From contig JALJEE010000987.1 of the NCBI GenBank assembly GCA_023231475.1, forward strand, positions 1-64,000: a DNA stretch of 64,000 nucleotides, given 5' to 3'. Both the position numbers and the translations under genes were made by a program. Every line of letters begins with the position of its first letter. The stretch's first letter is position 1. The notes beneath the pieces are model-generated. The model did no database searches. It was not told the origin of the DNA and saw only the letters and a program-made list of their open reading frames with translations. Shown here one piece after another: positions 23,462-62,700 of this stretch. This DNA comes from Seison nebaliae. Taxonomy: Eukaryota.

Positions 23462-25340
23462 TTATTGTTCCATCGTATTTGTAAAATTAAGAATTGAGGA
23501 TGGTTCACCTTGAAGTTGACTCATACGAATGGCGTTCTCTTTATAAGCCGATTGGTATGATCGTCGAGGACCAGTCGTCAAATTTTTCTCTAAAGGTGAT
23601 TGTTCATTCACATCAACCAGACCGTCATTGCCTGGAGGGATGTAATATGCATATGATTTTTCATCTTAACAAAACAATTATTAAAAACACATAAAAGAAA
23701 AAAATAATTTAAACTATTATTTTCCGATTTAAATTGTCGAAATTGTTGATGTGTGAGAGGCGGTTGTTGTTTATCAATTGTATTTTGGTTTGTTATTTGT
23801 TGCTGGTTACTTAATTGTTCACCAGATATCTGACCACGTTGACCATTGGGAAAAGTTATGTCATTACTTGTATCTGCCAAGTTGGAATTATTGAAAATTA
23901 TAAAAAAAATGAGAATAACAATAATTAGTTCTTGGTGTTGCAGGAGGAATGTTTTCTTGTGTTGTAATATTCACATTATTTGGAACAATTGCTGATGATT
24001 GCATAGCTAGAACGGAATAGTTTGTTTTACAAATTAGATTGTTACATTTGAAAAAGAATATTTTCCCCTAATAATAATTCCAACTACAAAGCCAAACTAG
24101 TTGTGGAAATCGAGTAAATTTAGAGAAGATTTGTGCAAGGAAAAACAATCATTCTCACAACTAAATAACAGAAAGCGAGTTGATAGAATTCGATGACTTT
24201 ACCTGGATTCCTGAAACGAATATCACTAAAGTTAAATTCGCTTCCTGTTGCATTCGACTGACGAATAGTATAAGATGCAGCACTCGGCGTTAACATATGA
24301 CGTTCTGCATCTGTTTTTAATGAAAATGATTGAGAATAAGAAATATCAACGTAATATTCCATTAATATTAAGATCAGCACATATAAAATAAAAAAAAGTC
24401 AAAAATGATGATATAAACCTGCGTTAACGAAACCTTCAGTTACACTGTGGAAGTTTTTATCACTAAAAAGAAAATAAAAGATTTAAAGTTTTTGAGTTTA
24501 ATGAACTTCTTAAATTGTTCCTTCTCTTTTGCTGAAATGAGAGAGATATAAGTTATAAGGTTTAGTTATAAAAGTAAATTGTGCAAAATGAACCATAATT
24601 CTTTTTGTGTTTGACAACGCCAATGATACATCCGACTAATATTCCTAGTAATGCTAACACACCAAGAACAATGAACACAATTTTTAAAATTTCTTTCATA
24701 TAACAAGAATAATAAGAGAAAGTAAAAATGGAATTAAAACGGTATCTTTCTTCATCAATACGTTGATCATTTGTTAGGACTGGTTCTCCGCAAATACGAC
24801 CAGTTTCTTTCAAAACTTTTAAATTGAATTGTAATAAAAGAAAGAGAAATAGTTAGGAAAACTTGAAGTCGATTTTTCAATGATATTCAATTTAATACAT
24901 GGACCAATATTGCCTTGAATGGACGAGATGACACATTTAAATATTCTTGGTATATTTGAGTTTGCCGTTACTTCTTCTTTAGGGATGTTTAATCGTAAAA
25001 CTTTATCTGAATTACTAGTCGTCCAATTTCTGAAAGCTTTGACTTGATTGCCTACCGCTAACAACATCCATTCATCATCTCTTCTTAATGTCAATGAATA
25101 AAATTCATTATCATTATTGTTGTTGTTGGATATTCTGATATCTTTCTGAAAACCAAATCCGAGTAATACAACCGAATCGGCATTGACTGTTGGTAATCGA
25201 CAGTCGATTGTAGCTGGTTGACCCTCCCTTATGCAAATATGACGTAGTGATGAACACATTTGTGTGAAATCATTCTCATCACATACAACCAACAAATAAA
25301 GGAAGTATGAAATCAGGAAAGTTGAGATTAAATAATTCAT
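23462..25340 (-). CDS. Single-pass membrane protein with a divergent Ig-like ectodomain and a multi-exon cytoplasmic tail; ~9 exons
   Basis: Signal peptide, EGQPATIDC...FKC pattern and TM segment IVFIVLGVLALLGILVGCIIGVV. Eight inferred introns keep the frame open to ...FTNTMEQ* (e.g. 24693-24740, 24311-24418, 24007-24202, 23874-23919). Confidence 0.65.
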
Positions 25341-27026
25341 ATTTTTCGCTTGTAAAATTTGCTTTGTAGTAATGAGTAAGTTGGAATGATTGGAGATAAT
25401 TAATTGGTTTGATGATTAAGAGTAATAGATTAAGTGATTGATAAAAGGAAATATAAATGATGAAGTGTCTTGTTACTTTGATTCATTGAATATGAAACGG
25501 TAATATCAGTGATCGTCACAACGATGAAATGAATGAGAAATTCACATAATCACATATGACTAACAATTTATCGTTCTTTTGAAAGGAAATGCACTTCACT
25601 TCAATGAGTTACGTCTTCCGTCTTCTCTAAAATGTTCATTATTCTCTCTAAATGTTGTTCCAATCGTTTTCAGTTGTCAATTAATCTTCTTTCGCGTTCG
25701 GGACATTATCCTATTAACATTTTAAGTCTCTCTGAAACAACTTGCTGCACTCTTTACTTTTAAATCTAAAGCTTGTACAAACATAATTGTGTAAATCCAA
25801 ATTATTTTTAATTCAACTATTCAATCAATTTACCTTGACATTTTACCGTAATAATCGGTAATTTTCACTATAAAACATACATGGAGAGTGTGAACCGCAA
25901 TATGTGGGAATGAATAACACAAATGTTTGATTAAGCGAAACAAGACAAGAAATATCGATTAACAATTGTGGGAAAATATCGCTGTTCTATAGTAGGAATT
26001 CTGATGTAGAGATATTATTGTCATACAATATATATTGCATATACTATATGTATTATATAGTATTGTTACAATTGTAACCACTTTTACTGATAGACGTCAA
26101 GACATATTGATATATATGATAGATCGACCATTTATACACTGCTTACTGCTACAGATATCTTATACATTCTTGATATTTTTCACCAAAAATATTATATTAT
26201 ATGATGAAAATATTAATAAATCGGATGTGAATTTTGCCCGTTATTGGAAATTGAACAAACACATAGTTATTCTTTACTATTGACAATGTGAACTTTAATG
26301 TGAGTCATGAACTAATTGGTAAACTAAAAACTAAAGTCACCATTCGACGGAAGTTCATACATAATCATGCTATCTGTGTTGTTATTTTGATAAAATTATA
26401 AAAAATAGATATGGAAAAGATTTAGTTTTCTCGATAATTAAATGTGCGTATCTTTAATTTGAAATTCACCTTTTTTATGCACGTCTCTGAAATCTTCCTG
26501 TTCCTGAAATGTTATCGTTGATTCAAATTTATAAAAGATTTTTCGAAAAAATAAAAGAGTGAGACAAAGATGTATTTTCTTGTCCCATTGACTTGCGATT
26601 GGCGAGATTTTAATTTAATTTAATCAATTGTTATCAATTTAATCTCATTCGAATGAATAATCATCAATAATGAATTTAATAGTATACTATGTAGTATACT
26701 ATGAATTACTAGTGTACTCTATTATAATGAACTCAATTTGTCCAAGCCACGGATATGTTACTATCCTTTTATATCTGTCTTCATTTCTTTATTCTTTGTT
26801 GTGCAAAAATAAAAAATTATTCCTTTACACACTTTAAAATGAAAATATTTTATTTTCATTATAAATTTACTTTTCAATAATATTATATATTTAATATGTT
26901 ATAAGGTTAAAGATTGTCGTTTATTTCACAAAAGACTGGAAACCGTAGAAAAAATTAACAAAGAATAAAATACTTTTATAGAGATTTACGATCTGCTTCT
27001 CAATCGTTATTAGAGCGAAGAAAAGT

Positions 27027-27967
27027 TCAACAAGAAGATGCAATAACATGAAAAAAATAATAAATTGTATCAAATGGATGATAAAGTGCTACTTTGGTGT
27101 TGCAATGAGTACAGGAAACAGAAAAATAGTTAGTTTCATTGGATTCAGTCAAAATGTTTTCTTCTCTGATAAAACTGTTCCTTCTTTGCTTCTTCCATTG
27201 AATCTTTTTCAATTCATTTTTTGATAATCCATTTAATTGTACCTCATCATCGTAATTTATTTTACAGGAACTTAATACAAATAATGCACGGAACTGATTC
27301 TTATACATTTCATGTCTGCATATTAAAACGTTAATGGTAATAGTTTTTGAAAAAAAATAAGTACTAACTCTTGAGAAATAAGGCAAAGTAAAGTGGTACA
27401 ACATGGACAACTCAATCGTGCATCAGTTGGTAATTCCCCAACAATTGCAAGTTGCTCCTTAACCTCTTCTTCTAATTCTTTACTTAATCCATCAAATAAT
27501 TGAGACACTCGAAATTTTTGGGATTCCATCCATTTACCCGTTTTATCATCTTCTAAAGGATCATAGAACAAATCTAATTGTCCTTCATCTACTATTTCGT
27601 CCGTTTCGTTCACGTCATCTATTTCATTCGATGTTTCACCAACATTTTCTTCCTCAACTTCAACATCTTCATTTCCTGGGAACATAATTCTTTCTCTATT
27701 TGTTTTACGATTATGGCAAATTGAATCCATTTCATTTTCAAATAATTCGACTTTCCGTTTAATCAGTTCGTCGACTTCTTCGAAATCATTTGACTCAATC
27801 TCTTGTCTGATATATCGATTTTTTTGGAGTTCTGTTGCATTAACATAATCGCCATGACATTTCCGAAATAAGTTTTTCAGTTCATTCAAATGTTCTTTAG
27901 TTTCATATTGTGAATAATCTGAACATTTTGACTGGTTCGTTTCATCAACATTATCCATCGTTTCCAT
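27027..27967 (-). CDS. EAPP: E2F-associated phosphoprotein; 2 exons
   Basis: LFYDPLEDD..W, TDARLSCPCCTTLLCL, HEMYKNQFRALFV, VSCTHCNTKVA and YYFFHVIAS; one GTTAG...CAG intron. Confidence 0.9.
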
Positions 27968-28699
27968 TTTTTATTAGAAAAATAAATCAAATATATTCAT
28001 TGTTTTGGAAATAGAACATCTATTAACTTTTTCCCAAGACATTTATTGTTTAATTATACGGCTTACGTGACTTTTATTTAATTTAATTTAACGAAATTAA
28101 ACTTTCACTTAATATGATACAAATATAATTTTATAAAGGCAATTCATAGAGGTTGAACTACGAAGATTATTTGATAATCGGGTGTTTTATTGAATGTAAT
28201 CTGTCGACTATTTATAATAATCATTAATTATTTAATTTGGAGCATCCTACAGTTTTTAAAAGATTATTGCTGACGATCGATCATACCAATCCTACGATGT
28301 TATTTTTAGACTTTAGAACTTTTTAAGTTGTAAAGAAATAATTTGTCTAAATAAAACAAGACAATTATGAAACATTTTTGAAGTAAGGTTTTTTTATACG
28401 TAAGAAGTTAATATATATATATATGTAAGTTAATACGTAAGAAGTTAACTTCCCTTACTAATCCTTGTTGTCTTGACGATTTGTTTCTTTATTTTTATGT
28501 TTTTTATGAAGCATTAACTGACTGAGGTATAATTTCTCTTTTGTATGTAGAAATATGTGAATAGTATTGTTATCCAAAAAATTTATTATTGCAATAATAA
28601 ATTTTTATTAGATATTTCTACATAAATTAGATATTTCCATTATACATTGAAGATTTGGAAGAGAGTTGATTTATTTAAACTTTCTCACTATCATCAATC

Positions 28700-30982
28700 A
28701 TGCAAAGAAATGTTCGATTGGCAACTGTTACTTTGAATCAATTGGTGTTAGATTTCAAGGGAAACTATGAAAGAATACGCGATTCAATTTTAGAAGCTTT
28801 TTATATTCATCATGCTGATTATCGAGTTGGTCCGGAATTAGAAGTATCAGGATATAACTGTCAAGATCATTTTCTGGAACGAGATACGGTGATACATTCT
28901 TGGGAATGTCTCATACAATTGATGGAAGATACGAAACATCTTCCTATTATCTGTGATGTTGGAATGCCAGTTGAACACAAAAGTGTATTGTACAACTGTC
29001 GAATAATTTTTCGTCGAGGTATCATCTTATTCATTCGACCCAAAAGATATTTATGTGACGAAGGAAATTATCGAGAAACGCGTTGGTTTGCTTCATGGAA
29101 AAAACATGGAATTATGGAAACATTTCGTTTACCTTCCCAATTTGCTACAATTATTGGTCAGGAGGAATGTCAAATTGGCGATGTCATTATACAGTTCAAA
29201 GATACAACAATTGGATTCGAAATTTGTGAGGAATTGTGGGCTCCACGACCATCTCATCAAACTTATTTCATTAGGGGAGCTGAAATCGTTTTCAATTCCA
29301 GTGGTTCACATCATGAATTGAGGAAACATGATATTCGTGAACAATTGATACGAACAGCTACAAAGAATTGTGGTGGTGTTTATGTTTATTCGAATTTGAG
29401 AGGTTGTGATGGTGAACGAGTATGGTATGATGGAGGATCTTTTATAACAATGAATGGGAGAATATTGAGTCGAGGAGAACAATTCTCTTTGATGGAAGTT
29501 GAAGTTGTTTCAACCGAAATTGATTTAAATGATATAATTGTTTATCGTTCAACAAAACGATCTTTCCATCAACAAAATAGTGAAGAAGATAATATTCAAT
29601 TGTCTATTCTCAAAATCGAACAATTTTTCCATGAGACAATTGATTGGTCATCATTTAAATTGCCTAAATTATTTGAGAAACTTTCACTAATAGAAGTCGA
29701 TCAATTCATTAACAATTCCAATAATCAATCGATATCACAGGAGATTGCAAAATATTCTGTCGAAGAAGAAATTGAATATGCACCAGCTCAATTTTTGTGG
29801 GATTTCTTACGACGAAGTAATCAAGCTGGTTTTCTTTTACCGTTATCTGGTGGTGTTGATTCATCATCTACCGCTACATTAGTTTATTCGATGTGTCGTT
29901 TAATATTCCAACACTTAAATGGAAGTGAATCATTCAATAAGAATATTCAAAAGGAAATGTTAGAAATTAATCGACGAAAAGTTGTGGAGGATTTAAAGAA
30001 AAGTTTCTTCAAATCCAGTAAAGGAAATGATGAATCTACATTTCCAATATTATCATCCGAACAATTGTGTCATAATTTACTAGTTACAGTTTACATGGGA
30101 AAAATTGGTCATTCCAGTATGGAGACAAGAAAACGAGCAGAAACTCTCTCTAACTCAATTGGATCGACATTTCTTCAATTAGATATTGATCAAACGTTCA
30201 ATGCTCTCAAATCAACGGTAGCTGATACTTTGTCCATTGAACCGAAATTTGATGGTAATTCGACGGAACAATTATCTCTCCAAAATATGCAAGCGAGACT
30301 TCGAATGGTATTTGCATATTCGTTGGCGCAACTACAGTTGTTTTCTCAGGAGAAAATTGGTTCACGTTTAGTTCTTGGTTCGTCAAATGTTGAGGAATGT
30401 CTAAGGGGATACATGACAAAATATGACTGTTCATCTGCTGATGTCAATCCTATAGGTGGCATATGTAAAGCTGATCTCAAATCTTTTCTTCTCAAAATGA
30501 CCGACAAATATGAAAATTTGTCAATTCTGAAGGAAATAGTTGAAGCAACACCAACTGCTGAATTGTTGCCATTATCAAACGACGACAATTTGGTTCAAAC
30601 AGATGAAGATGAAATGGGACTGTCTTATGAAGAATTGAATCAATTTGCTCGTCTTAGACGTCAATGGCTATGTGGTCCGGTATCGATGTTTGAAAAGATG
30701 AAATCGAAAGAAATGAAATTAATCAATCAAGTTCCAATGAAACAGATTAGAAGTCGAGTCATAAGTTGGAGTGAAAAAGTCAAAAGATTTTTCTATTATT
30801 ATTCGATAAATCGACATAAAATGACGATAATGACACCTTCTTATCACGCAGAATCTTATTCGGCCGACGATAATCGATTTGATCAACGACCATTTCTATA
30901 TCCATCTGAATGGCATTGGCAGTTTAGAGATATTGATATTATCCTCTCCAAATTCTTAAACGAAACCGAAATATTGAAATAA
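28700..30982 (+). CDS. NADSYN1: Glutamine-dependent NAD+ synthetase; single ORF
   Basis: Nitrilase domain (GPELE, EICEELW) and synthetase domain (PLSGGVDSSS, QNMQARLRM, TKYDCSSAD). Confidence 0.96.
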   Translation: MQRNVRLATVTLNQLVLDFKGNYERIRDSILEAFYIHHADYRVGPELEVSGYNCQDHFLERDTVIHSWECLIQLMEDTKHLPIICDVGMPVEHKSVLYNCRIIFRRGIILFIRPKRYLCDEGNYRETRWFASWKKHGIMETFRLPSQFATIIGQEECQIGDVIIQFKDTTIGFEICEELWAPRPSHQTYFIRGAEIVFNSSGSHHELRKHDIREQLIRTATKNCGGVYVYSNLRGCDGERVWYDGGSFITMNGRILSRGEQFSLMEVEVVSTEIDLNDIIVYRSTKRSFHQQNSEEDNIQLSILKIEQFFHETIDWSSFKLPKLFEKLSLIEVDQFINNSNNQSISQEIAKYSVEEEIEYAPAQFLWDFLRRSNQAGFLLPLSGGVDSSSTATLVYSMCRLIFQHLNGSESFNKNIQKEMLEINRRKVVEDLKKSFFKSSKGNDESTFPILSSEQLCHNLLVTVYMGKIGHSSMETRKRAETLSNSIGSTFLQLDIDQTFNALKSTVADTLSIEPKFDGNSTEQLSLQNMQARLRMVFAYSLAQLQLFSQEKIGSRLVLGSSNVEECLRGYMTKYDCSSADVNPIGGICKADLKSFLLKMTDKYENLSILKEIVEATPTAELLPLSNDDNLVQTDEDEMGLSYEELNQFARLRRQWLCGPVSMFEKMKSKEMKLINQVPMKQIRSRVISWSEKVKRFFYYYSINRHKMTIMTPSYHAESYSADDNRFDQRPFLYPSEWHWQFRDIDIILSKFLNETEILK

Positions 30983-31569
30983 TAATGTAGAATTTTTCTT
31001 TACGATATCTTATTATTATTGAAATCAATTATATTTATATATATTCATCCCTCGTTCTCCATTCCTAAATGTGGTCTTTGTGGTAATTTCGTAATATCTT
31101 GTCTGTCTTATTGATATTCAAACTTCGTAAATTATCTTAAATATCTACTTGTCCATTAACAGTTTACTTTTTTAACGAAAAATTATAATTCTTTAAATAA
31201 AATATTTGTAGGATTTCTTTTTACATTTTATTCTTGCATTCGATCATCGAATCCTTGTATCATGAAGTGATATTTCCAGTTTCATAATTTTGAATTCTTC
31301 TTTATGAATAGCATTCTTTAAAGTGTTTTACGTTAGAGTATATCTAAATCTATAACGTAATATGGGAAGTTTCGATAATTATTAACCGACAAGTGGAAGG
31401 AAAATAATTGTTCGCTAAACTAGGCTTCAGAGAATAGATTTTGAGATATCATATTTTATTGTTTAATATTTTAAATATTATAAATTAAAAAAATAAAAAA
31501 AAATATTAAAAATTTACTTTTCAGATTTTAATCTTGTCAAACGATAATATCTGTTGTTGAATTCTTCCT

Positions 31570-33195
31570 TTAACGTTTCTTTAATGCTTTTGTCATACTT
31601 GAGAATATATTATCCGTAGTAATACTCGTAGTAAGTCCCTTCTTTTGTAAATGGTCCTCTAACATTTGTTGTCGACATAGTTCTCGGCTAGTTGCAACGT
31701 TGTTGATCATATCTTGTTTTTGAAGGTTCAGGAAATGTTTATCTTCCATTAATACTTGATATTCTTCAATAAAAAGCAATATTATAAATAAAATTATTTA
31801 AGAATGTTAACTTGATCCTGTATCAAGGTTAGACATTTCGTTAGTGGCTTCAATTTCATTGGAGTAAATTTTCAAGAATTTGCTGCCATCCATTTTCCGA
31901 TATTTGATTTGTGCTTGATATGGTATCTTCTTTTCCTTCCATTTAAGAATATTATCATTGCTTGTATCTTTTATCCGAATTTCGAATGTTTCTTGCACAT
32001 TTGTTACGACATTACCTTGTTCAACAATTCGAATGTTTTCTTCTTCGTTCGTTGCATCTATGACTTGGAAACCTTTTGGCATTCTAAAAGTAGTTTCTAC
32101 ATTCGACGCTATTTGTTCTATTTTTAACATTTCGGCAAAATCATTTGAATCAGTTTGAGGGTCAAATAACCGAACGTCTCCTTCGGTTAATAAAGCAACA
32201 TGGCCCAAATCTTTCAAATTGCAATCACAATTTTTTACAGACATTAGATCAATTATAACTCCACATTCTTTAGCCAATTGACCTAATTCATGATAAAATT
32301 TTTTATCACCACTATTTCCGAAGCCTACATTAGCCTGTCCATCAGTCAACATAACAACACGAGAACCCGGTGTCCGTGACGCATAACGAACTGCTGAATA
32401 GAGAGCAGGACCCAATGCAGTACAACCAGCGGTACGAAGAGAAGTGACAGATCTTGTTATTTGTCCATAACAATTCTTTATGGGTAGTGGTTGAATGAAA
32501 TCGGTTGCAAAGTCGGTCCATTCATTTTTCTCCGATAAACAACCGGCCTTCTCCACTTTTGCTTTCGATGAAAAATCTCCATAACATTTTACATTCGTTT
32601 CAAATGTTATCAACGACAACTTGTTCTCCGGAAAATTTTCTTTTTGGAAATTGATAGCTTTCAATGTCATATTTTTTACCGCATCTAAGACAGTGAAAAT
32701 TTGAACTCGATTGTAAAAAGCTCTTAATGCCACCTTTTTAACAGAATTCCACCAATTTTCTTTCATTTCCTTTACTTGAGCACCCATACTGCCACTAATA
32801 TCAATAACAAACACAACCATGACTGGATGTTCAGTTTTATTATCACCTGATTCGTCGGTCTGCGATTTAACTAAATTTTCATTTTTTACGATTTTTCCTT
32901 CTTCCAATTGATAAGACATGCAACCATCACTAGCCACGATATTTTCTATTTGATTATTGGACAAATGGGTAATGTCGTTAACATAAGAACAAAATTCGCA
33001 AGTCCATTTTCTTCCATTTACTTCTGTTATATTTTTTTGTGATAAGATTGAAAAAACCGCACCGCAATTACATCGAATGATCTCATCTGTTATTATGTCA
33101 CTTTTTTTCGAGAGATCATCATAATCTAGTTGAATCAATTGTAATGTACTTTTCGACTCCTTCCCAATATATAGGTTTTCTCTACCCGCCTTCAT
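31570..33195 (-). CDS. Sec23/24-like Zn finger + vWA domain protein (CPRas-like vWA module); 2 exons
   Basis: RCNCGA...WTCEFC Zn finger; VVFVIDISGSM MIDAS, TALGPAL and MLTDGQANVG motifs; intron 31764-31811. Confidence 0.8.
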
Positions 33196-33719
33196 TATTT
33201 ATTCTAATCAAGTAATTTTCTTATAAAATAAATAAACATGGAAAAGTTATAAATTAATATTTAGAATTTTACATTTGTAAAACTGAATAATAAATTGCAA
33301 TAATATGGTTAGCTTAATATTTTTCATCTTTTCCAAAACATGAACGATAAATAGTTATTTTGAAAAATTGTTAATGGAAACTATAATATCCTCCAGCAAC
33401 CAAAAGGAATTTATAAGAAATTATTTTTTTTCACAATCTTGTTTCACAATTTTATTACATAATTATGTTTCATAATTTTATTATGACTAATCAGTAATAT
33501 TTCTCATAATATATAGGAATTCTAATAAAATTGTGAAGAAACATTCAAGCTTCATTTTTCATCACTTCAATGAAATACTAGAATAGTTCTAATACTGTTC
33601 ATCAATTGTGCATCATTCCACCTTAATAATAACAGAATTATTTAAAGGGAATAATACAATTAGCTGGAGTTGCAGTAGAACCTGGATTATAAGAGAATGT
33701 TAAATATTTGAAATCATGC

Positions 33720-38353: not shown

Positions 38354-40168
38354 ATGTATTTGGAACACCAGAAACGTTGTGAAGTTTTCATTTAGAAATT
38401 AAATTTTTGAAAGTTTTTCATTTTTGTACTTTAAGGTTATTCTGAATGAAATCAGTGGAAGTGTCGAATTGAACGAAAATAATGGTGATATCATTTTCAC
38501 AAATGAAGAAGACGAAGAGGCATTCCAAAAAGTTCACGCCATTGATAAAGGTAAGAATCGGTCGTTGGAGAATGTGATTCGTCGAAAATTTCTCCGTATC
38601 TGTCAAGATTTGACTACTACTAACAGAAGAAGATTACTATTGAATTTGTGGAATATTTGTATTCGATGTGTTTATGATGGGATAGTTGGAGATGTGTTAC
38701 CTATAATTTTATTACATGATCTTTATTCATGTTCATCGCTCGATGATTGTGAAGAGATGTTTTTCCTATTAGAGAAATATTCGATTGTTTGGAAGAAACG
38801 TATAAATTTTTCTCATGTGCAGAATAACATTCTTCGGTTATGTAATGGTTGGTATTTTTTTGATTAAGCTTTAAGAAATTTAAGAAATTTTCAGATTTAT
38901 TGAAACAGTTTCATAAAATTGATAAAAATAATTTTTGTGGGAAAATTCAAATGTTTTTAGCGAATCTCTTCCCACTAAACGAACGGTCAGCACTCAATCC
39001 GATGGGAGCGATCAATGTTGAAAATGTGACGCATTACATTGAGAATGATAAAGAATTTGAAAAAGATATTCAAAGAGAAATCAATTTGAGAATGATGACA
39101 CATCGTGAGAGTGACAATAAAAATATTCCTTTTGGATTTTATATGAAATTTTGGTCGATTCAAAAATATTTCTATAATCCTCATCTCCTCAATAATCGAA
39201 GTAGTTGGTTGAAATTTGTGGACAGTATCAATGAAACGTTGCAAAAATTCCATATGACAAATGAAAAAAGGAACGAAAACGATAAACATTATCTCAATCA
39301 ACTTCAATTTAATATGAATAAATCCATCGATCTATTCAGATCAGAGAAGGATGTTGATTTTTTTTCGTCCAAATATCTGACTAGTGCCAGTTTATTAGCA
39401 CGTCAATTTGAGGATGTAACTTTTCAACGAAACCTTTTAATTCAATTCTTAATATTTTTCCAATATTTCCATAAACGGAATCGACATCAAACTAATATTC
39501 ATTTATGGAATGAACAACAACAATTCATAAATTCGATAACGAAACTAATAAAATTTACTTTGGAACATTCTTCAAATAATTTCAATTTAGTATTGACAAT
39601 TGATAATATTTTAGAACGTGAACAAATTTGGAATGAATGGAAATTGGGCGGATGTGTATCATTTCTTCGAAAAAAGAAAGAAAAGAAAAATGAGAATATG
39701 AAAAGGAAAAGAACGTTAGGTGAAGATGTTGAGCATCAGTTACAATTAAAATATACAAAATTGGGTAATGTTGAATTGGATCAATTGTGGAATTATCGAT
39801 CGGATAATCTATTGGCATGTCAAGCCACACCAGACAAGTTAATGCCAAACAATCGCGATTATTTTGAGGAAGCTATCATGCAATCTGATCCAAGTAGTGG
39901 AATAGAGAAAGAATATTTATTGATCAAACAACCTCAATGGGCATGGAAAGCTTTAAGATTGTTATCTTATTCTTTAGCGCCATATGTTACTGCCAACAAC
40001 AAAATGTTATCAGGCGAAGATAGTTTGAAACTTTATTGCGAAAAACAATTGAATGAAAAAACGAGTAACAAACAACAAAGTCGAACATTATCATTAAACA
40101 ATAATATTCCAACTCCAGTTCTTCCCATTTCTACTGCTCCTTCTAAAATAGTTAATGGTCAGAAATGA
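38354..40168 (+). CDS. THOC1: THO complex subunit 1; 3 exons
   Basis: ILRLCNDLL, FCGKIQMFLANLFPLNERSALN, FYMKFWSIQKYF, KYLTS and ILEREQIWNEWKLGGC; introns 38384-38435 and 38848-38894. Confidence 0.92.
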
Positions 40169-40420
40169 TATTTTATTCAATTTCTTTCTTGATTTATCAT
40201 GGAAATTAGATGTCCAAAATTTTTCATAATTAAAATTCAATATCTTTATTTACACATCTTCGTTACAACTAATTAGTGATGTCCAAATGGTAACAAAGAC
40301 GACGAGCTCTAAAACGATTTTATAGAGGAAGAGAAAAAAATCCAGACACTCGTTTTTGCCTCGTATACATACACTATTTGTTCTATTTTGACCAAAAACA
40401 GAATGGTCAGTAAGCGACAA

Positions 40421-41384
40421 GGTACACGGTGATTTCGTCACCCTATTTTTTTGCCACGGTGTTTTGTTCAAAACGGTGATTTTGCCACCCACAAAACGGT
40501 GATTTCGCCACCTTTTTGTAGGAAAACGGTGATTTTGCCTCCCTGTTTTATTAAAAACGGTGATTTTGCCACCCTGTTTTATTAAAAACGGTGATTTTGC
40601 CACCCTGTGCAAAATATATGAATATTTCCATAATACATATATTGGGCACAATAATGGTGTTTTTGTCCCTCCATCATTGTGGAATAATCGTTCGAGGGTT
40701 ATGAACAATCTCCCTCGAACGAATAATCTAATGGAGGGAAAAAATAATGGATTAAGATTTCTAATAAAATATGACAATCCATCCATGTCATCCTTCGAGA
40801 ATCAGTTGAACAAAATATTCAACTACGAAGAACTCCAATATACGTTATTCAAAAATAATCAAAAGAAGCGAGTAAAACGAGTTGAAAGGGAAAAAAATGA
40901 GCGGTTGCAAGTAACAATTCCAAATTTTAGTATCGACACTCTCGAAGATAATCTTTTTACTATTGACAAAATTTTCCATTGAATTTTCTTTCCTTCTTAT
41001 ACATTTTATATGGTCATTTTTTTAAAATTACTTGTTATCGCTTAAATTAAGATAATATCATATACCGATAAAAAATAAATAATAAATATAAGATATATCC
41101 GAAATAATTAAATTAATCTACTCAAATATTAGACTAGAATTAGGAAATCTCACAATGTCAAGAATAAGAAATAGAAGGTGAGAATATTTCCATTTTATAG
41201 AGCAATGGGTGAGGAAACTTCCATTTAATAGATAATATGGTGAGGAAACTTCCATATTGAAAAAAATGGGTGAGGAAACTTACATATTGAAAAAAATGGG
41301 TGAGGAAATTTCCATAATGAAAAAAGTGGGTGAGGAAATCACCGTTTCGCTGCTAATTTTAGGGTGAGGAAAAGTCCGGCAACC
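40421..41384 (+). mobile_element. Internally deleted MULE (Mutator-like) DNA transposon with repetitive ends and a transposase C-terminal fragment
   Basis: Left: tandem AAAACGGTGATTTTGCCACCC units. Middle: ORF YFHNTYIG...PPSLWN...LPRTNNLMEGKNN (MULE RTNNxxE motif). Right: tandem GGGTGAGGAAA units at 41207-41372. Confidence 0.8.
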
Positions 41385-41759: not shown

Positions 41760-41804
41760 TAAATTAAAACAATACAATTTTTACAATAATTTTACGAGAA
41801 TTGA

Positions 41805-51789: not shown

Positions 51790-53470
51790 ATTCCAAAAAT
51801 TTCCAGAAGATAATTATAAGAATGATAATGATAAAGAAGAAAATGAATATGAAGGATAAAGAGAAAATGCACAACGGCTAATAAAGAAGTAAATCAGTTC
51901 TTATTCATAGTAGTAACTCCTCTTAAGAATAATGAACGGTCTACATTTCGTTTTTCTTCCAAAGGAAGAGAAATGAGAAAAATAATGGAAAATATGATTC
52001 CGTATTTCGCTTGTCATACGAAATAAGAAATGAACGAAATCATTACACTAAATTATGTCTATTACCATTACTGATGAATAACAGGGAGATATGTATCGAA
52101 CAGGAGATGATCGTTGTTAATGTTACGGCTTCTTTCCATGGATAATAAATGTGGAAACTCTATCCATAAACTGTGTACATTTTCTCCTTATACATGTCTA
52201 TCTATGTTGTCTAACAACAAATAACTTATATTTTCTTACACAATCTTTCATGGACTTCACTTAATTCTATTGCTGATTTATATGCTTCTAAACCTAATAC
52301 GAACGTTCCATAATGTTACTTCACATACGAGGAAGGATGCGAATGTTCTACTTTAAATATCTGACAGCAATCATACCTAACATTAAAATCGGAAGGGACG
52401 TTATGTGCAAAGAATATATTTTAAAGATTAAATTTATTTAGAATAAATATTTATCTTCATCTACATAATTCCTTAATCACCAGCAATAACGATGTATAAC
52501 TTTGATTCAACTATTTCATTCTGTATAATAATAAAAATTCTTATTGTTTAATAGACCAGATGATATAGGAGTTCTTACAAATTCTCACAAAACTATAGAA
52601 AAATTCCTTTAAAACATCATTAAATTAACATTAATAAGAAGATAAATGTTTATAGAAATAAAAATTCAGAAGAATAAGGTTAACTCGTGATTTGGATGAT
52701 TTTAGCTGATGTTCAGATCTTGCACCAAAAGTCTCACTTGCTATTTCAGGTAACAGACTCAATGTTAATTCATCCATAACATGCAACGTTTCACCAATTG
52801 AATAAATTATAAAGCTGTGAAAATGGTTTTATTCTCACTCAGAATAAAACAATTTTATGAAAGATACAAAGATGATATGAACATTGAACTGATCACAAGA
52901 GTAAAAGGATGAACACCCTTTTGGTCAATAGTGATATCTTACTTTGTTTCCGATTAATATCAGAGGAAAAGAAGTATAATGTGAAGAAGAAAAATAAATA
53001 AGTGAAAGAGAAGTAATAATGATTTATAATTGAAGGTTACTACGAATACTGGAGATAAGACTACGGAAAGTAAATCATTCAAAGTCCGTCGATTCCAAAT
53101 AATCGATGAATGCAGAAGAAAAAACCTAATATGCTAAACTATAAACTTCGGAATAATTTAATGCTCTATATATTTACTGTTAACTTCATCAAATAAGTAT
53201 ATTATATTGGAAAGTTTTATTGAAAGAATCATCATATTGTACATATTGTACCACATTCTCCTAATAAGATTAAATTAAGTCAATCAATTAGTTTAAACAT
53301 ATATAAGTGAGAATTTTATTTTTCCAACGTTTCATCGAACTGTTATAAAAAATATATAATAATTTTTACATATAGTAATAAAAATATAAGTAAAGATATG
53401 TTGAGCGCACAAAATTTAGAAAGTTTGTAAAAGATTCTCGGTAGTTTGTTTGTAGATTTGAAGAAGGAAA

Positions 53471-56400
53471 ATGGAAGAATCAAACGAGTTTATTTATCCC
53501 CAGGATAACCTGGGTGATTTTATAACAACTGTCGTTAAAAAGAGAATACGTGATTCAAAGCGTTCGTCTAAAGGAACTTCTGTTTCATCTCCAAAAAGTA
53601 AATCATCACATAACTCTTTGATCGAAAGCGTTGATTATGCTCGTTTTATTTTATTCAATGAGGATGATATTAGTCAAATCAATAAATTAGATTCGGAAAG
53701 TCCTGTAAAGCAATCCTGTGAAAAAGTTAATGAAAAAAGTATTGGTAATTCCGGTACGTCTTGTGGTAAGTCATCTGATCGATTATCAGATGGAATATTC
53801 GACGAAAGTGATATGGAAAATAAAGATACCGAAATCGAAGAAGAACAACGTGAAGCAGAAAAATTAAAAGAAGAATTTCTTTTAAAGACCATTAATGGAA
53901 ACAATTTAGATGAGAGTTCTTCTGAAATTCCTGAATTTTTGAACGATGACTCTTACATTTGTGATTCAATAGATGAAGCTGTAGATGAACCGTCTAGTTC
54001 GGATAATTCTCCAAACCAATACAAATCACTTATTATCGTCAAAGGTGATCCAGAACAATCGGTGATAAAAATTCCCACATCAGAATTAAGAGAATATCTT
54101 AATATAACCCCGAAAGCGTCAAAATCAGATCATTCAAAAATGATTACGATCAGAAGCAGCAAAATGCAATTAAATGAAGGAACACCTAAGGATGACTTAA
54201 GCTGTGACATATTCGATAAACCAGAAGAATGCTTTTCAATGAAAAACAAGGCATGTTATAATGAATTGAAATTGATTCAAAAAACAAACCAGGAACAAGA
54301 ATATCCCAAAAGTGCTCCATCAAATTCATCTTTTAAAAATCCACAATATTTCCAAATAAAACCTCCAAACGTGCATCCTTCAAAATCATCAATAATTAGA
54401 TCTCTATTAAAAAAATCGGAGAATACTTCTGTTAAGGTGCCAACTTGTGATCCACCAAAATTACTCATCACAAATTCGAAAACCATTGAAAACTATTTGT
54501 CAACAACATCAGTTAGCAGTTCTTCAACTGACTCATTTATTGACAATGGATCGTCCTCGTCCATGACAGATTTTCAAATTAAATCCGAAGAAAAGTATCC
54601 GACAACATCGGCAAGTGTCTCACCAACCACAATCGTAACCAGATCTCCAACATCATCTGATACCGGATCCATTTCAACATATCCTTCAACTCCGATTGAC
54701 AAATCACGTTTAAAAATAAATAAGAAATTATCACGACAACACAATAAATCTACTCTTAGGTCAATTCGAAGATCTTCTTCAAGATCAAAAAGATCTCCAA
54801 TTAATATTATCCAGGAATCAAATACAATACAATGCAAAGTAAAACCATTAATCGATATATCCAACAGTACAATCAATCAATCGATAGAGAAAGAAGATTT
54901 TAGTATTACCGAAACAACAACTCCACAGAAACAAACTGAAACAATTGCAACTCAAACATTGTTTGTATCTAATAGTGTTATATCAAAGCCACCGCTTGTT
55001 AGAAGATCTCGTAGTACGCAATATCCAATTCAACCCGCTTATGATTCTATTTCTGATAATGAGCTTTTATACGAATCTGGAAGATCAATTGTAAAACATC
55101 CGAAATGCAAATATGCGACTGAAAATCGAAGAGTGAATCGAGTGCGAAGTATGACACCTCGAATCAAGAAAATTGCTGTAGAACCGATCATCTCAACAGA
55201 TAATAGTATCGATTCGATAAGTACTATCCAAAAGAATATTAAAATGATAGATTATGAGCGTCAAATACTGAAATTAAAGAATGAAAATGAAGAATATCAG
55301 GAACATCTTAGAGAAATGAATCAAATGTTAAAGAAGAAAGATATGACAATTGAAAAGAATGAATCCATCATCAAACGTCTTGTTTCAGATATGAGAGATG
55401 TTTGTTTAGGTAAGTCGCTTACTTTATCGAAAGTATTGGAAGAAAAAGAAACCGAATCAATAGACTGTCAAACTAATCATATGATATCAAGTATTAATGA
55501 ACTGTTATTGAAGAAAGATTACAAAGCGAATGAAAGCGATCATCTGAAGGATAGGGAAAAATTAAAGAAATATGAAAAACAATTGGAATTGGGATTGATA
55601 AGAGAAAAAGAGTTAATAAAAGAAAATGACCGATTAAAATCCGATAGTCGATCCAAAGAAATGGAACTGACCAAACGTATTGAACGAACAAAAGAAGAAC
55701 GTTATTTAACAGAAAACGAAGTTTTTAAAGAAATTGAACAGTTAAGGGAAACGGTTCGTATGAAAGATTCTAGTCATATGAAGGACGTAGAATTTTTGAA
55801 GACGATGGAACTTCATAAATCAAATGAGAGATTGCAAGAGATGGAGTTAATAAAACAAAGGGCAGATACTAATGAAAGTGAATTAATGAGAAGAATAACA
55901 AATTTAGAAGAGAATAAAATATTATTAGAAGAACAATTGGTCGAAGGTGCAACAATAATCGAAACATTCAAGCCTAATATACTTAATCCCGCCTTTGAAA
56001 AAAATTACAGTACTTGTCTTTTAGTTGCTAAAGAGTTACATAAGATCAGTGTTAGTTCTTTATTAGAATTGTGTGAGGTGTTGAAAAATTTCAATATAAA
56101 TGAAGTAACTCAATTTTATCCGACATTACAATTGTGCTCGGATTTAGTCATACCCATTGATATCGACGACACACAAATAAGTAATCATTTTAAAACCTTA
56201 AAAGAGACTGCTGGCATGTTAGTAGCATTTGTAGGTAACACCATTTTAGATAAACTGTCAATGATTAATGAATTGAATGAACAGTTATTAGATCAACATC
56301 GATCAGTCGAACTGATCCATGTTCTTCGAAATCAATTGAATAAATCAAACGGGAAAAATGAAAAGTTAAAACACTTTGCCGAATCTAGTAAAGAAAAGAT

Positions 56401-56836
56401 GAATATATATAAAAGAACCATATTGAAAACAAGGAAACAAAACGAATTCGAAAAAAAAAGAATTCAAAAATTGCGGAATCTAAAGATTAATAATATTACC
56501 GAAGTTATTGCGAAAAAATGCTTATCCGTCTATGCAGAATCTCATCGTAATGAAAAATCTAATAAACTCAAATTTGATAATATTGTATTGGAAGCAATCA
56601 AGCCTCCTGAAAAACCTACAGAACAATTAAAATGGAAAGACAATAATAAGGTGGAGCTTTACTTGAATTGCGAAGATATTAGCAATAGTTTAGGAGGGAA
56701 ATCTATCGGCAGTTTGGCAATCAAAAGAAATCCTAATCAGTTTGGAGAGGATCATTTTAAAAAATTGGATAGGATTGAGAAGATACCGAAAAAAAATTTA
56801 AAATGTAGTTCATCATTGTCGTCAAAAAGGTCTTAA
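53471..56836 (+). CDS. Large uncharacterised protein: Ser/Thr-rich N-half, coiled-coil C-half; single ORF
   Basis: 1121-aa uninterrupted ORF in very AT-rich DNA, E/K-rich heptad region, and AATAAA after the stop. Confidence 0.8.
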   Translation: MEESNEFIYPQDNLGDFITTVVKKRIRDSKRSSKGTSVSSPKSKSSHNSLIESVDYARFILFNEDDISQINKLDSESPVKQSCEKVNEKSIGNSGTSCGKSSDRLSDGIFDESDMENKDTEIEEEQREAEKLKEEFLLKTINGNNLDESSSEIPEFLNDDSYICDSIDEAVDEPSSSDNSPNQYKSLIIVKGDPEQSVIKIPTSELREYLNITPKASKSDHSKMITIRSSKMQLNEGTPKDDLSCDIFDKPEECFSMKNKACYNELKLIQKTNQEQEYPKSAPSNSSFKNPQYFQIKPPNVHPSKSSIIRSLLKKSENTSVKVPTCDPPKLLITNSKTIENYLSTTSVSSSSTDSFIDNGSSSSMTDFQIKSEEKYPTTSASVSPTTIVTRSPTSSDTGSISTYPSTPIDKSRLKINKKLSRQHNKSTLRSIRRSSSRSKRSPINIIQESNTIQCKVKPLIDISNSTINQSIEKEDFSITETTTPQKQTETIATQTLFVSNSVISKPPLVRRSRSTQYPIQPAYDSISDNELLYESGRSIVKHPKCKYATENRRVNRVRSMTPRIKKIAVEPIISTDNSIDSISTIQKNIKMIDYERQILKLKNENEEYQEHLREMNQMLKKKDMTIEKNESIIKRLVSDMRDVCLGKSLTLSKVLEEKETESIDCQTNHMISSINELLLKKDYKANESDHLKDREKLKKYEKQLELGLIREKELIKENDRLKSDSRSKEMELTKRIERTKEERYLTENEVFKEIEQLRETVRMKDSSHMKDVEFLKTMELHKSNERLQEMELIKQRADTNESELMRRITNLEENKILLEEQLVEGATIIETFKPNILNPAFEKNYSTCLLVAKELHKISVSSLLELCEVLKNFNINEVTQFYPTLQLCSDLVIPIDIDDTQISNHFKTLKETAGMLVAFVGNTILDKLSMINELNEQLLDQHRSVELIHVLRNQLNKSNGKNEKLKHFAESSKEKMNIYKRTILKTRKQNEFEKKRIQKLRNLKINNITEVIAKKCLSVYAESHRNEKSNKLKFDNIVLEAIKPPEKPTEQLKWKDNNKVELYLNCEDISNSLGGKSIGSLAIKRNPNQFGEDHFKKLDRIEKIPKKNLKCSSSLSSKRS

Positions 56837-56949
56837 AAATAAATTTAAAACATTTTCAATAAAGGTATTTAGACAAGGTATGTTATGAATTTTAATTGTC
56901 AACATCAATAAAAGAATTCTTCATTTTCGATAGCTGTTATCTGATTAAA

Positions 56950-57277
56950 AAGATCGATCTTTTTAATGCGATCGCAAAAAATAGCGATTTCATACGCAAA
57001 TTTCATGTCAATAGCGTCAATATTCTTTATTTTATGGATAAAAGTATAAGAAACATTTTTTAAGTTTTTCGCTAATTGTTGACTAAAAAGTATTACTTTA
57101 GTAGTATTTTAGCATTTTTAGTACTTTTTAGTCAAAAATTAGCGAAAAACTTAAAAAATGTTTCTCATAGTTTTATCCATAAAAAGAAGAATATCGACGT
57201 TATTGATCTGAAATTTTAAACATAAGTTAAGAAATAATAGACGATCAATTTGCGATGCATTTTATAAAAATCGATTC
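56950..57277. mobile_element. Foldback-type imperfect long inverted repeat (MITE-like)
   Basis: Core arms ~56998-57097 and ~57119-57216 are complementary with scattered mismatches. Weaker outer pairing ATCGAT...ATCGCAAA / TTGCGAT...ATCGAT. Confidence 0.75.
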
Positions 57278-57329
57278 CGAATTAGGTACTGTGCTGAGCG
57301 TTTAAAGCACAAAAAATGTAAAACAAAAT

Positions 57330-57473
57330 ATGGGTGTATGTTACCAATTTTAATAAGAATATGTATTTCTGGGTTATCCATGGTGCTGAAGAAAGCATAA
57401 AATGCTATTTGACGAAAGTTATAAACATTTTTTTAAAAAAAATTTTGTCCGATTACTTTTGAATATACCTGTA
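57330..57473. mobile_element. Tc1/mariner-type element end (remnant)
   Basis: Ends GTCCGATTACTTTTGAATATACCTG|TA and shares its core with 33876-33902. Left boundary approximate. Confidence 0.5.
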
Positions 57474-58040
57474 TTTTACAATTCTACTTCGAATCAAAAA
57501 TTTCATCTCAAATAAAATGGGTTTTCCCCCTTATCATAAGTTGGGTATGTATAGCTCGCGAAAGGAAATGTTTGGAATTATTTCATTTATTAAAAGGAGA
57601 ACGAAGTAAATCATTTCCCTTCGCACTTCGTATTTCTATCACTAAATCATCAATATGTAACACCCAAATCTTAGGAAATATTCAACAACCTTAATAAAAC
57701 ATGTACCTGTCGGTTTATGTATAGATATAAAACATCTTGTTCGTTCGTTCTCTCTTATTGCCACACTTTTTGCGTAACTGTAAATTACTCTTGATGCAAC
57801 TATAAACTATAATCTTAGATGTTCATCCCCCGATTACATCAATAAACGGTCGCCTGATGTTTAGAAAACAACTTGTCCCCAAATTTTACATTTGATTAAC
57901 GTCCCAATATTTAAAGAATAAACTTGTTCAATTTACTTCGTTTAAACTTCACATAGGATTATTTGAAAGTTATCTGCAGAAATATATAAAAGAAATAAAA
58001 CTTTGTATTGTAATACTGGTATAATTTCTTGTTTTTCGAA

Positions 58041-58235
58041 GTACCATAAACCTCCTAGTTCTGCTTATCCGTTCAAAGGGCGAAGTTTCCTGTCTACCCG
58101 GACTATGTTTTAATTGGTATTGGAGGCGTCCCCTTCTTGGTAGACAGGAAACCAGAATCCGACCTGTATGAATAGAAGAAGGTACAAGTTTTTGTTTCGG
58201 TATACATAAATTATATTAATATATTATGCGAAAGA
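58041..58235. ncRNA. Candidate structured non-coding RNA, family unassigned
   Basis: Locally GC-richer. Perfect 14-bp stem 58085-58098/58139-58152 with nested and flanking stems; no ORF. Confidence 0.3.
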
Positions 58236-58916
58236 AAAATATCGATATCTATCGATATTATATTTGCTGATATAATTTAAGTTTATTCATCGTTCCTCCT
58301 CTATTGATCGTCAATTACGACGATTAACACCCTTCTTTGGGTGTTTAACATCACGCAGGCGTAGTTTTATGATGGTGCTCATAGCCGCATCAGTATGGAC
58401 ATGGGAGTCCCAAAAAGAGCCACATACGCACTTCATACTGCGATGTTATACTTGGAAGTAAGTCTCTTCCATTAAGTCACATCTTACTCTCAAACTTCCG
58501 CAATATAATACAATTAATTAATAAGACAAATTAATTATCGCATTATTATACGGAGTTGACAGAACTTTATACGAACGATACTTATCTTCGGTATGAGTTG
58601 TACGAAAGGGAAGATGTTCCGTATTCGTTAAATTGAAATATAATAAAACATTGAAATTAACAAAATGCACACATTTGAATTAGAATCATATATACTTATC
58701 TATAAAAATCAAACTTAAAAATATAATACATATCTATATATACGTATAATAAATAAAATAAATGTTTTAAAAAGAAAAGAAACAAATATTCATTGAAATA
58801 AATTTCGAAATAATCATCTTCCGAATGGTTTTAAATTTTCTTTAAATGGTCCAAAATCTTCTTCATTAAAATTTTAGAAAAACTTTTTTAATCGCATTTA
58901 TTTGACAATATCTTAT

Positions 58917-58972
58917 GGGGATGTAACTCAAATGGTAGAGTGCTTGCTCAACAGGGATATCTGGCATCTTCA
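58917..58972 (+). pseudogene. Internally deleted tRNA-Ala pseudogene
   Basis: GGGGATGTAACTCAAATGGTAGAGTGCTTGCT matches the 5' half of animal tRNA-Ala and ...GGCATCTTCA matches the 3' acceptor strand. The anticodon 3' side and most of the T arm are missing. Confidence 0.75.
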
Positions 58973-59743
58973 GCAAATTCTTGACTGGATCATTCTTCAA
59001 TTGAATGAACAACATCAACAACATTAACGGCATTTGAATTCATGTGTTCTCTTCACTTGTCCTCCCATTATACGGACTCGATTCTCTTAAAATATTCGTC
59101 TCCAACAGCTCATTCGTCAAAATGGACTGAACTTACAACAATCGTAATCTTATTTTCGCAGTCACCGACATATCTCCATTTCCTATTCTCTATTGTCTAC
59201 GCATTTTCCGCGTCTTACAACTTTTCAGCATCGGGTCTCTTCACCAACATATCATGTCTTATTCAACGCTCTATCAAATCGAATAATTCCGTCTTTTCTC
59301 ACACCATTGTACACTATTCGATAGATCACTCACCTCTTTCAACAGAATTTCGTGAGTTCATCTTCTCGTTTTCATCAGTGTCTCGGTTAGTTGGCTGCCT
59401 TAAATTCTGTCAAAAATTATCCAATACCCTGATATTAAAAAATCAACCTAGGGCCTTGAACATTTTCCGCGAAAGCAACGTTTGAATTGTCCCTGTATGG
59501 GAATTTACAGACTTCTTTTTTCTTTTTTTACCTTTATAAATTTTTTCCTACGTAAGATTACTGGATTTGTCTGTAACTCTATTCAATCTTATTCCTTTTT
59601 TTCTCTTTTTCTTTCTTTTGCCTCTTATTAAAAATAAATAAATAAATATTATTTAAATTGTTTTTATTGAAACTTAAATTAAAATAGTTAGATGAAAACT
59701 GTAAATAATATATGATAATTATTAAGAATTAGTTTAAATCAAA

Positions 59744-62700
59744 TTATTGGGATGCTGATTGAGATTGAACTTCTTCGTCCATAATCATAGCCTGCCCTGC
59801 TGCAGCATACGAAAATACACAAAGAATGGAGTAACATATTCGATCGGCTTCTTTCTACAAAAAAAAGCAGGTTCAAATAAAAATAAATTCACTTCTGCAG
59901 ATACTAATCACAATGAAATAACGATTCATAACAATTTGATGAAAGTAATAAAATATTGAACTAATTTGGAATAATAATAAAAATAAGAAAATTTCACTGG
60001 TATTTAACACTCATACGAAGAAGAGATTATGGAATGTTTGATGTTATTCGAATATTCGAATGTTAATGGAAAGTGTTTGACATTCATTCAAAATTAGATG
60101 ATAATTCTAATAGAGTTGAAGGACGTCTTTCCAAAGAAGCTTCGGCTTCTCCAAGCGCTGCTGAATTTTCATTCTCTCCATTATAATCCCCTTGGTCGTC
60201 ACAATATGGCACATTCATACTTGTTGTGATGAGAGTGATTGACGGAGTATCACCTAATTTTCTTGGTAATAATATTGAATTTCTTTTCATAATTTGTGGT
60301 CGATTATGTTTCCTTGAATTATTATGTTGGAACACGATGGAAAATATTCGATGTAATTTTAATGCAATATCTTGAAACTACACAATTTTTGCACAAGATA
60401 CACAATTAATATCACAAAAATCAGCACAATAAAGACAAAATATAAAATAAAACGTAGAAAAAAATTACTTACAGCGATCGAATAATATTCCTTTTCGTAC
60501 AATTCTCCTGAAATAATATCGAGCACTTCTATGACGAAAATATTTCCCTTCTTTGTTGTACATTTTTTGATACGAGACAACTCGATAAATTCCTGTAAGA
60601 GAAAATTGAAATTTTGAAAAGAAAATTAAAAAACGGAAAATGTAGGGTAATTAAATTGAAGTCCCTCCAGACAAATTTCAACAATACCATTCTCTTTGCT
60701 TTCCAAATCAGTTATCTTGAAGTTTCCTCCCAATTCTTGTCCTTCATTTAGAATGATAAATAAATTTGTATACACGTGAATTTAAGAAGAATGAAGACCT
60801 GGAATTTTTTCTTGCATACGTATCGCCGCATTCTCCATTGCATCTTTTATTGAAAAGTACAGATCTTTACTTTGCTAAAAAGTTTTTCTTGTCGTGAATA
60901 ACTAAAAGGATAAATAGGAGATAACTTTTCTTGTATAAAATTTTGATAATTCAGTTTCTCCATCAACATTCGTCCATAAACATAGCACTTTAGTTTTAGG
61001 ACAGAATGTCATATTCACTAATTTCTCGTACCACCAACGTTCTTTGATCTCACCTAGAACACTTCTAATAATTATACAATCATCACAAACCTTTTAATTA
61101 AAGATAATTTGAATATGAAAGTGAAAAGAAAAGAAAAGAAAAGAAACTTCCATAAACATTAATTCACCAGAGTTGTCTGTTCCTAAATGAGCGGCGAATG
61201 AACTTTTCGATATTAATCGACTATTGGCTGGTTTTAAATCTACATCATTTCCATTTAATTGACTAATATGATCAGATAATTCATTTATTTGTTGAGATAA
61301 GACGAGACCAATATGACATTTCCCTAATAGTCGTCGTACCTTTCGACGAATATCTTCTCGATTCACTTTCATCATTATCATAAAAGCAATGAGATTGTAG
61401 AGGAAAACTGTCAACAATTGATCTTCATCTAATTCTAATCGTTTCTTTTCCGCTAATTTTAAAGTTAAATAACGATCCATCATTTCGCCTGGTCCTAAAG
61501 AAAGATGAGGAAAATATTTTGAAAATTAAAAAGAAACCTTGATCCATTCCAATCATGTCACGTTCTTGAGCAACGGCATCAAGAAAGGCATCTTCCCAAA
61601 ATTGCATAGAATCCCATAAATGAGAACGATTTGTAAGTAAATTCTCAAACACATAAAACTTGTCAGGACTGACACTCGTCGTTAAAATCGTTCCATACCG
61701 ATAACGATATCCACTGGAGATATTTGATTTGGCTGTCGGCAAACCATAATTCATAGACATGGTATAATTGTATGAAATGTTTGAATTTTTTATTCGACTG
61801 GAATTAATTGTTGATGAAATAGAACTATTGTCACTAATCATTGATGTGGTGAGATTGTTGAATGATTTCTTATCATTATTACCAGACAAAGAATTCATTG
61901 TGGTAGATGGGACGGTTGAATTAATATTTTGTGATGATGCTTTCTCAATTTTCTGCCAAAAATGCGTATGAGCTAATTCCAATAATTGGAATGCACTTGC
62001 CATTCCTCCCAATCCATTATTTGCGTACGTCCGTTCCAATCCATGAATGATGAGTTGACACAGTTTTACTGTTCCTTTATAAACTTCTTTCGATATTAAC
62101 TAGAAAAAATGGAAATAAACGATTATAAAGAATATTAACCACATCATCGATATGTTCATCAGCATGCTTCAATCGACGATTTAATGATGTATTCAAATGA
62201 GATAAAATAAAATTACGATAATTCTCATCTTCCATCAAGCGTTTCGTTCGTGTAATTTTCAACCATGGAACACCTTCTCCTTTCAATACACTAATAACAA
62301 CTTCTTTCAAAAATAACTGATTATCACTAAAAAAAATAAAGAAACGAATCAATGATCAATGAACAAACGATGAGTAAAATGAACCTGTGAGTAGCACTTT
62401 GTATTTCCATACTATGTTTCCGTTGGATATCACCATGATCTTCATCCAACAAATTCTTCGAACTACTTCGACTTATCGAAATCTTCTTATTTGGCACATC
62501 ATCTTCTGTTGTTCCATGTTTCTGCTGTATTCGTAACAATTGAGGAGAATCAATTCGATCACTAGGCAATGTTTTTGGTTCATTCTTTCTCAATGATATC
62601 CAATCCTGAAATGTCGCTTTCGCTCCATTACTCGCATTCTTCATCACATCTGCCAAATCATCACCAATTAATGCAATTACTGATTTACTTTGTTGTTGTT

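Follow-up and report, generated by a model that had tools for sequence, protein, structure and literature searches.

Two GTA splice donors at alternative choice points in a GTT-dominated stretch of the Seison nebaliae genome

The stretch of DNA considered here (the window) comprises 64,000 nucleotides (nt) of Seison nebaliae, positions 1 to 64,000 of the forward strand of contig JALJEE010000987.1 (assembly GCA_023231475.1), with a G+C content of about 30%. It carries compact animal genes which, according to their Pfam matches, encode MADD (Death_MADD 5e-34; PH_MADD 1.6e-08), THOC1, beta-tubulin, NAD synthase and a GOST/GPR107-type receptor, and it also carries the orphan gene SNEBB_002308. Nearly all the introns catalogued in this window open with GTT. 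The two that open with GTA, at 60472 in MADD and at 24202 in SNEBB_002308 (both on the minus strand), lie at alternative-splicing points, namely the terminal exons of MADD and the annotated cassette exon of SNEBB_002308.

In nearly all eukaryotes the third base of the donor (+3) is a purine, on account of its pairing with U1 and its subsequent contact with U6. In the window, the curated catalogue of 40 introns (spanning positions 3466-62384) contains 37 GTT donors, 2 GTA donors and 1 GTC donor, and the original prediction, made from the sequence alone, that 24202 and 60472 are the sole GTA donors holds within this catalogue. Taking into account that T occupies the third position in 41.8% of all GTN trinucleotides of the window, the binomial probability of 37/40 GTT donors is 2e-11. 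Positions +4 to +6 are uninformative in these 40 donors (at most 0.2 bit each), with T at +4 in 17/40 and G at +5 in 5/40. The introns are short, 37/40 of them measuring 40-62 nt and the other three 95, 108 and 196 nt (median 48 nt); those with a GTT donor range from 40 to 62 nt, plus the one of 108 nt.

Introns were predicted with our own dynamic-programming gene finder, whose donor score is blind to position +3. GTT opened 25/26 introns in a strict run and 39/45 in a loose one. Since the gene finder errs at single junctions, the catalogue was corrected by hand, and four of its proposals were discarded: a GTATAA donor (95 nt) in THOC1, where the alignment to human THOC1 (7znk) needs GTTGGT at 38848; a GTTGAA donor (90 nt) in MADD, where homology needs GTTTTT at 60634; a GTTTTC donor at 13352, where public protein P0121 and its homologues need GTTAAT at 13337; and, where SNEBB_002308 has its 196-nt GTA intron, a GTT intron of 79 nt, refuted by public protein P0242. 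Outside support is available for 24/40 catalogued junctions: 8 are reproduced exactly by P0242, 7 are given by P0121, 8 in MADD lie between segments that tblastn aligns to the MADD proteins of rotifers and annelids, and 1 in THOC1 is fixed by the alignment to the human protein. The other 16 come from reading frame and gene finder alone. A scan of the reading frames of at least 100 amino acids (aa) for hidden in-frame introns gave none that was convincing and no strong GTA case, and the regions of the window poor in open reading frames showed no coding potential able to conceal genes with long introns.

That the window is Seison nebaliae DNA is shown by the GOST gene. Protein P0121 (KAI3386633.1, SNEBB_002304, Seison nebaliae) maps to it exon by exon with 100% identity, and our spliced model shares with this protein of 641 residues an identical prefix of 370 and an identical suffix of 261. 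At 13338-13802 (minus strand), P0121 excises two GTT..AG stretches from a conserved transmembrane exon, which is left whole in other species, and reads a frame-shifted micro-exon ('GRKTIILS'); this form may reflect an annotation error or cryptic splicing at GTT sites of low information.

A search of the literature on Seison introns and splicing gave no description of GTT donors, nor was one found for any animal. The passages available of the species' genome paper (PMC8351084) and of PMC10125929 do not mention the donor sequence.

The features of MADD, all on the minus strand, are the following.

60473..60592, minus strand: shared exon before the choice, encoding a PH-like domain and ending ...EKEYYSIA (Pfam PH_MADD, as above; tblastn)
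60467..60472, minus strand: GTAAGT donor, exon end gct/GTAAGT, phase 0, read from the sequence
60378..60472, minus strand: 95-nt intron to terminal exon B, frame-compatible acceptor at 60378
60084..60377, minus strand: terminal exon B with stop codon, encoding the B-type C-terminus shared by bdelloid rotifers and Tachypleus isoform X2
59855..60472, minus strand: 618-nt intron to terminal exon A, with exon B inside it, frame-compatible acceptor at 59855
59744..59854, minus strand: terminal exon A with stop codon, A-type C-terminus as in Capitella, arthropods and frogs
60742..60798, minus strand: 57-nt intron with the GTC donor (GTCTTC), apparently constitutive, visible as an in-frame gap when P0004 and P0011 are aligned by tblastn

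Phase 0 is the only donor phase at 60472 that keeps both downstream exons in frame. Fifteen MADD homologues were inspected, 11 of them with a complete C-terminus, which is of the B type in 6/11 (four bdelloid rotifers, one metagenome protein and Tachypleus isoform X2) and of the A type in 5/11 (Capitella, barnacle, mite, frog and locust). Exon A matches the A-type C-terminus of Capitella with 75% identity over 20 aa (tblastn, E 4.9e-05), and against A-type proteins the version of the protein ending in exon A reaches local scores of 113-152, compared with 68-105 for the version ending in exon B. Against the three best bdelloid B-type C-termini, exon B scores 124-130 and the exon A version 98-99, this last value being the baseline contributed by the shared exon. 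Two open exons thus follow a single donor, each homologous to a known C-terminal form of MADD. Since both are intact and conserved, the donor at 60472 very probably serves the two of them, and the claim that it can reach acceptors 95 or 618 nt away is borne out at the level of frame and homology. Reading through the donor without splicing was also considered and rejected, with scores of 109-115 against the bdelloid C-termini compared with the 124-130 of exon B.

The second GTA donor lies in a gene whose sole match among 1.84 billion representatives is itself, with no homologue found beyond its own two public proteins. Its features are listed below.

23462..25259, minus strand: gene SNEBB_002308, encoding an orphan type I membrane protein, with nine coding exons and 8 introns (7 GTT, 1 GTA)
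24311..24418, minus strand: 108-nt intron upstream of the cassette exon, with the GTT donor GTTTAT, the longest GTT intron of the catalogue
24203..24310, minus strand: 108-nt (36-codon) cassette exon, present in P0242 and skipped in P0241
24197..24202, minus strand: GTAAAG donor, exon end cag/GTAAAG, phase 1, at the junction used in P0242
24007..24202, minus strand: 196-nt intron GTAAAG...TTCTAG, T 41%, GC 30%, less T-rich than the short introns
24007..24418, minus strand: 412-nt intron of the skipping isoform, which runs from the GTT donor of the 108-nt intron (24418) to the acceptor of the 196-nt intron (24007); the model without the cassette exon corresponds to P0241

The junction between 24202 and 24007, proposed earlier as opening a 196-nt intron, is real: the nine exons joined through it translate, letter for letter, to the public protein P0242, of 398 aa. 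When 24203-24310 is left out, the model is exactly the 362-aa protein P0241, which has the same locus tag, so that for this exon, with a length that is a multiple of three, inclusion and skipping are both on record. The two proteins presumably rest on transcripts, and both isoforms may well be made in vivo at this locus as at MADD, as far as can be judged from sequence.

The DNA contigs covering 23462-25259 showed no spliced form. Runs X1 and X2 contain a divergent DNA copy of the cassette exon, with about 89% identity to the window and a depth of about 3x compared with 13-26x, which aligns to 24182-24315 alone. Of its nine listed differences, seven fall at third codon positions, and one contig has 139 more bases past 24182 which do not align; the cassette exon is therefore coding, and the similarity ends near the donor. 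This copy could be an allele, a strain variant or a paralogue. Upstream of the gene, at 25260-25340 (minus strand), an in-frame ATG encodes a typical signal peptide (MNYLISTFLISYFLYLLVVC), while P0241 and P0242 begin at MCSS..., and their annotated start is probably too far downstream.

The GTA introns, of 196 and 95 nt, are the longest and the third-longest of the 40, and the three introns of at least 95 nt (95, 108 and 196 nt) all flank the two alternative events. The association of GTA with long or alternative introns has a Fisher p of 0.0038 over the 40 introns, a nominal value obtained post hoc with n=2, and a rank test of GTA against intron length gives p = 0.012. It had been proposed that GTA donors occur on long or alternatively spliced introns, and GTT donors on introns of about 110 nt or shorter. 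The first statement stands in that both GTA donors are at alternative points, and fails as a strict split, as P0241 has an intron of 412 nt that starts at a GTT donor (24418); the length limit agrees with the catalogue, and holds for the inclusion isoform alone. The accompanying suggestion, that T at +3 would keep introns from long-range pairing, is contradicted by that same annotated junction (24418 to 24007), from which it follows that long or alternative use is open to GTT donors.

Both GTA donors have GT at +1/+2 and a purine at +3, as canonical U2-type donors do, and T or C occupies +3 in the remaining 38. With the standard U1 end ACUUAC, quoted from a preprint and possibly not that of this species, GTAAGT pairs from +1 to +6 and cag/GTAAAG from -3 to +4, so that at least five contiguous pairs are available to each, while typical GTT donors have 2-4 possible pairs. 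Rfam gave no match at all in the window at gathering thresholds, and at E <= 1 three sub-threshold matches appeared, none of them a small nuclear RNA (snRNA). At 57052-57162 (plus strand) there is a hairpin-like match to the plant microRNA family MIR9563, with 50 bits compared with a gathering score of 90, which is probably an AT-rich inverted repeat.

The MADD genes of relatives provide some information about the direction of the change. Three rotifer-like metagenome contigs of 1.2-1.5 kb, including L001 and L003, encode MADD proteins with 55-66% identity over the best aligned segment, and all five donors inferred in them (5/5) are GTA. In one relative, GTAATT opens the intron orthologous to that which opens with GTTATC in the window, and the L001 orthologue of the 60472 donor is likewise GTAAGT; the alternative terminal exons lie beyond the reach of all three contigs. 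Since the relatives use GTA even at the intron where Seison nebaliae has GTTATC, GTA is the older state, kept at the MADD switch, and GTT represents a change in the lineage of this species.

Taking all this into account, we favour, with a probability of roughly one half, the explanation that at 24202 and 60472, which are real splice donors at alternative choice points, the ancestral type has been retained because these sites have to compete or reach far, within one spliceosome. Selection would likely have kept the ancestral-type GTA where a splice site competes for partners or acts over a longer distance, and a single spliceosome, with no pathway reserved for either class, would probably process GTA and GTT introns alike. 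The reason for the retention may lie in U1 or in exon definition. This explanation and the alternatives discussed below are not mutually exclusive in every detail.

Several observations weigh against the retention of GTA by selection, or against a strict split between the two kinds of donor. There are two GTA donors only, with an association established post hoc, and two cases cannot prove a rule. Isoforms were looked up for the two flagged genes alone, which introduces an ascertainment bias, as other genes with GTT donors may be alternatively spliced. The third donor without T at +3 (GTCTTC, 60798) belongs to an unremarkable intron of 57 nt, and in the cassette event itself the GTT donor at 24418 is alternatively paired, with acceptors 108 or 412 nt away. 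GTAAGT hexamers occur in the window at the rate expected by chance (23 compared with 21.4 +/- 4.6), three of them (45016, 53766 and 55410) lying within long reading frames, on the coding strand, where they are not spliced. Moreover, 16/40 junctions lack outside support, and the public annotation is flawed, both in the two GTT..AG introns that P0121 cuts from a conserved transmembrane exon and in the start of P0241 and P0242 downstream of a likely signal peptide.

The first four of these points also speak for chance, which is the alternative that survives best and which we regard as possible, although clearly less probable than the retention just described. GTA would then be a residual minority of a few percent, randomly distributed in a genome drifting to GTT, and its coincidence with long and alternative introns an artefact of small sample and ascertainment. 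It has to explain, however, why both GTA introns are within the three longest of the 40 and both at alternative events, with the Fisher value given above, and why the MADD donor is equal to the GTAAGT of a relative while a neighbouring orthologous intron went from GTA to GTT.

The opposite polarity has also to be considered. If the spliceosome had adapted to U at +3, for instance through a co-evolved U1, GTA would be read as a suboptimal donor, a weak site permitting skipping or choice. Alternative exons commonly have weaker splice sites, and P0241 skips the exon bearing GTAAAG. That U1 is able to co-evolve with U at +3 is known from Entamoeba, according to a preprint (bioRxiv 10.1101/2022.06.08.495308). 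Nevertheless, the MADD donor is a full GTAAGT, conserved with a relative that uses GTA throughout, and looks like a retained strong ancestral site, and the GTT donors do not show, at +4 and +5, the further conserved bases that a U1 in tight co-evolution would lead one to expect. We therefore consider this polarity unlikely.

Equally improbable, in our opinion, is a broader proposal for the whole genome, in which nearly all introns of Seison nebaliae would be GTT introns unpairable by standard U1, and the ancestral GTA would be a dedicated mark of regulated choices, acting via a second route (a second U1 variant or exon definition), so that position +3 would encode the distinction between constitutive and regulated splicing. 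The original prediction of two routes is the least likely of all. In it, a canonical U1 pathway would serve long or regulated introns, short constitutive introns would follow a distinct GTT route, perhaps with a second U1 variant, and T at +3 would be favoured by selection because it excludes short introns from the long-range route. Although this accords with the association of GTA with long or alternative introns, with the 2-4 pairs of typical GTT donors with standard U1 (some altered recognition must exist) and with the presence of both standard and modified U1 candidates in Physarum reported in the same preprint (bioRxiv 10.1101/2022.06.08.495308), the annotated 412-nt junction has a GTT donor choosing between two acceptors, and the same data are accounted for by one spliceosome that reads +3 in a relaxed or altered way.

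Some other features of the window were noted. It is gene-dense except at 4400-12700, where about 8 kb lack reading frames that look coding. Two tandem arrays, at 40449-40608 (a 31-nt unit in about 4-5 copies) and 41204-41338 (a 30-nt unit in 4.5 copies), separate THOC1 from a trypsin gene, and at 40253-40979 overlapping reading frames on both strands have no Pfam match. At 1254-1380, within a weakly predicted gene, an imperfect repeat of 15-18 nt of the GTTGCTGCTGCG type gives rise to Cys/Ala/Val-rich frames on both strands. The 45-nt GTT intron at 3466-3510 (minus strand) holds the single in-frame stop that divides the two halves of the reading frame of an Srw-type G protein-coupled receptor.

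An animal in which nearly all introns are GTT introns, with related rotifers using GTA at orthologous introns, constitutes a natural experiment in 5' splice site recognition. If GTA is truly concentrated at alternative or long-range choices, one base would separate the sites recognised by classical pairing from those defined across an intron of 40-60 nt, and it would become directly testable how intron definition and U1-dependent choice share the work. If the coincidence is due to chance, the finding shrinks to two ordinary minority donors.

Among known systems, U12-type (minor) introns provide the established example of a second intron class served by its own spliceosome. The GTA introns resemble them in being a small minority with a different donor, and differ in that 0/40 introns of the window have a /RTATCC(TT) donor or a TCCTTAAC-like branch site. 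Shifted-register (+1) donors of the form GTTNNGT, reportedly described by Roca and Krainer in 2009 and able to regain GTNNGT-like pairing one base further downstream, begin with GTT like those of Seison, but this form fits just 3/37 of the GTT donors. Alternative 3' exons are known in human MADD, and as regards the alternative C-terminal exons of MADD/DENN, the window has the A-type (…ICYSxLCVFSYxAAG) and B-type (…HRxxSIV…) forms of other animals, with a single donor for both; the use of the two exons in Seison would follow from their conservation.

In human genes, two major classes of 5' splice sites have been described, with preferential pairing to U5 loop 1 or to the U6 ACAGA box (PMC11732430). 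The likeness lies in one genome with two donor classes tied to splicing complexity; the difference is that both human classes are GTR and share one machinery, while in Seison the split is at +3 itself (T or A), with a minority of about 5%.

The nearest precedent found for GTT as the default donor is Entamoeba, with transformed donors GUUUGU[U], a co-evolved U1 snRNA with ACAAAC, and GUUUGU in 87.9-89.5% of its introns (bioRxiv 10.1101/2022.06.08.495308). Both organisms have U at +3 in nearly all introns, as seen in the 37/40 GTT donors of the window, and both have lost the standard U1 pairing. Entamoeba, however, is an intron-poor protist with a rigid consensus of 6-7 nt and a demonstrated ACAAAC U1, and the U at +4, G at +5 and U at +6/+7 that extend its consensus are not conserved in the window, as the counts at +4 and +5 indicate. 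Seison is an intron-rich animal in which GTT alone is conserved, positions +4 to +6 are uninformative, and a GTA minority is placed at alternative sites.

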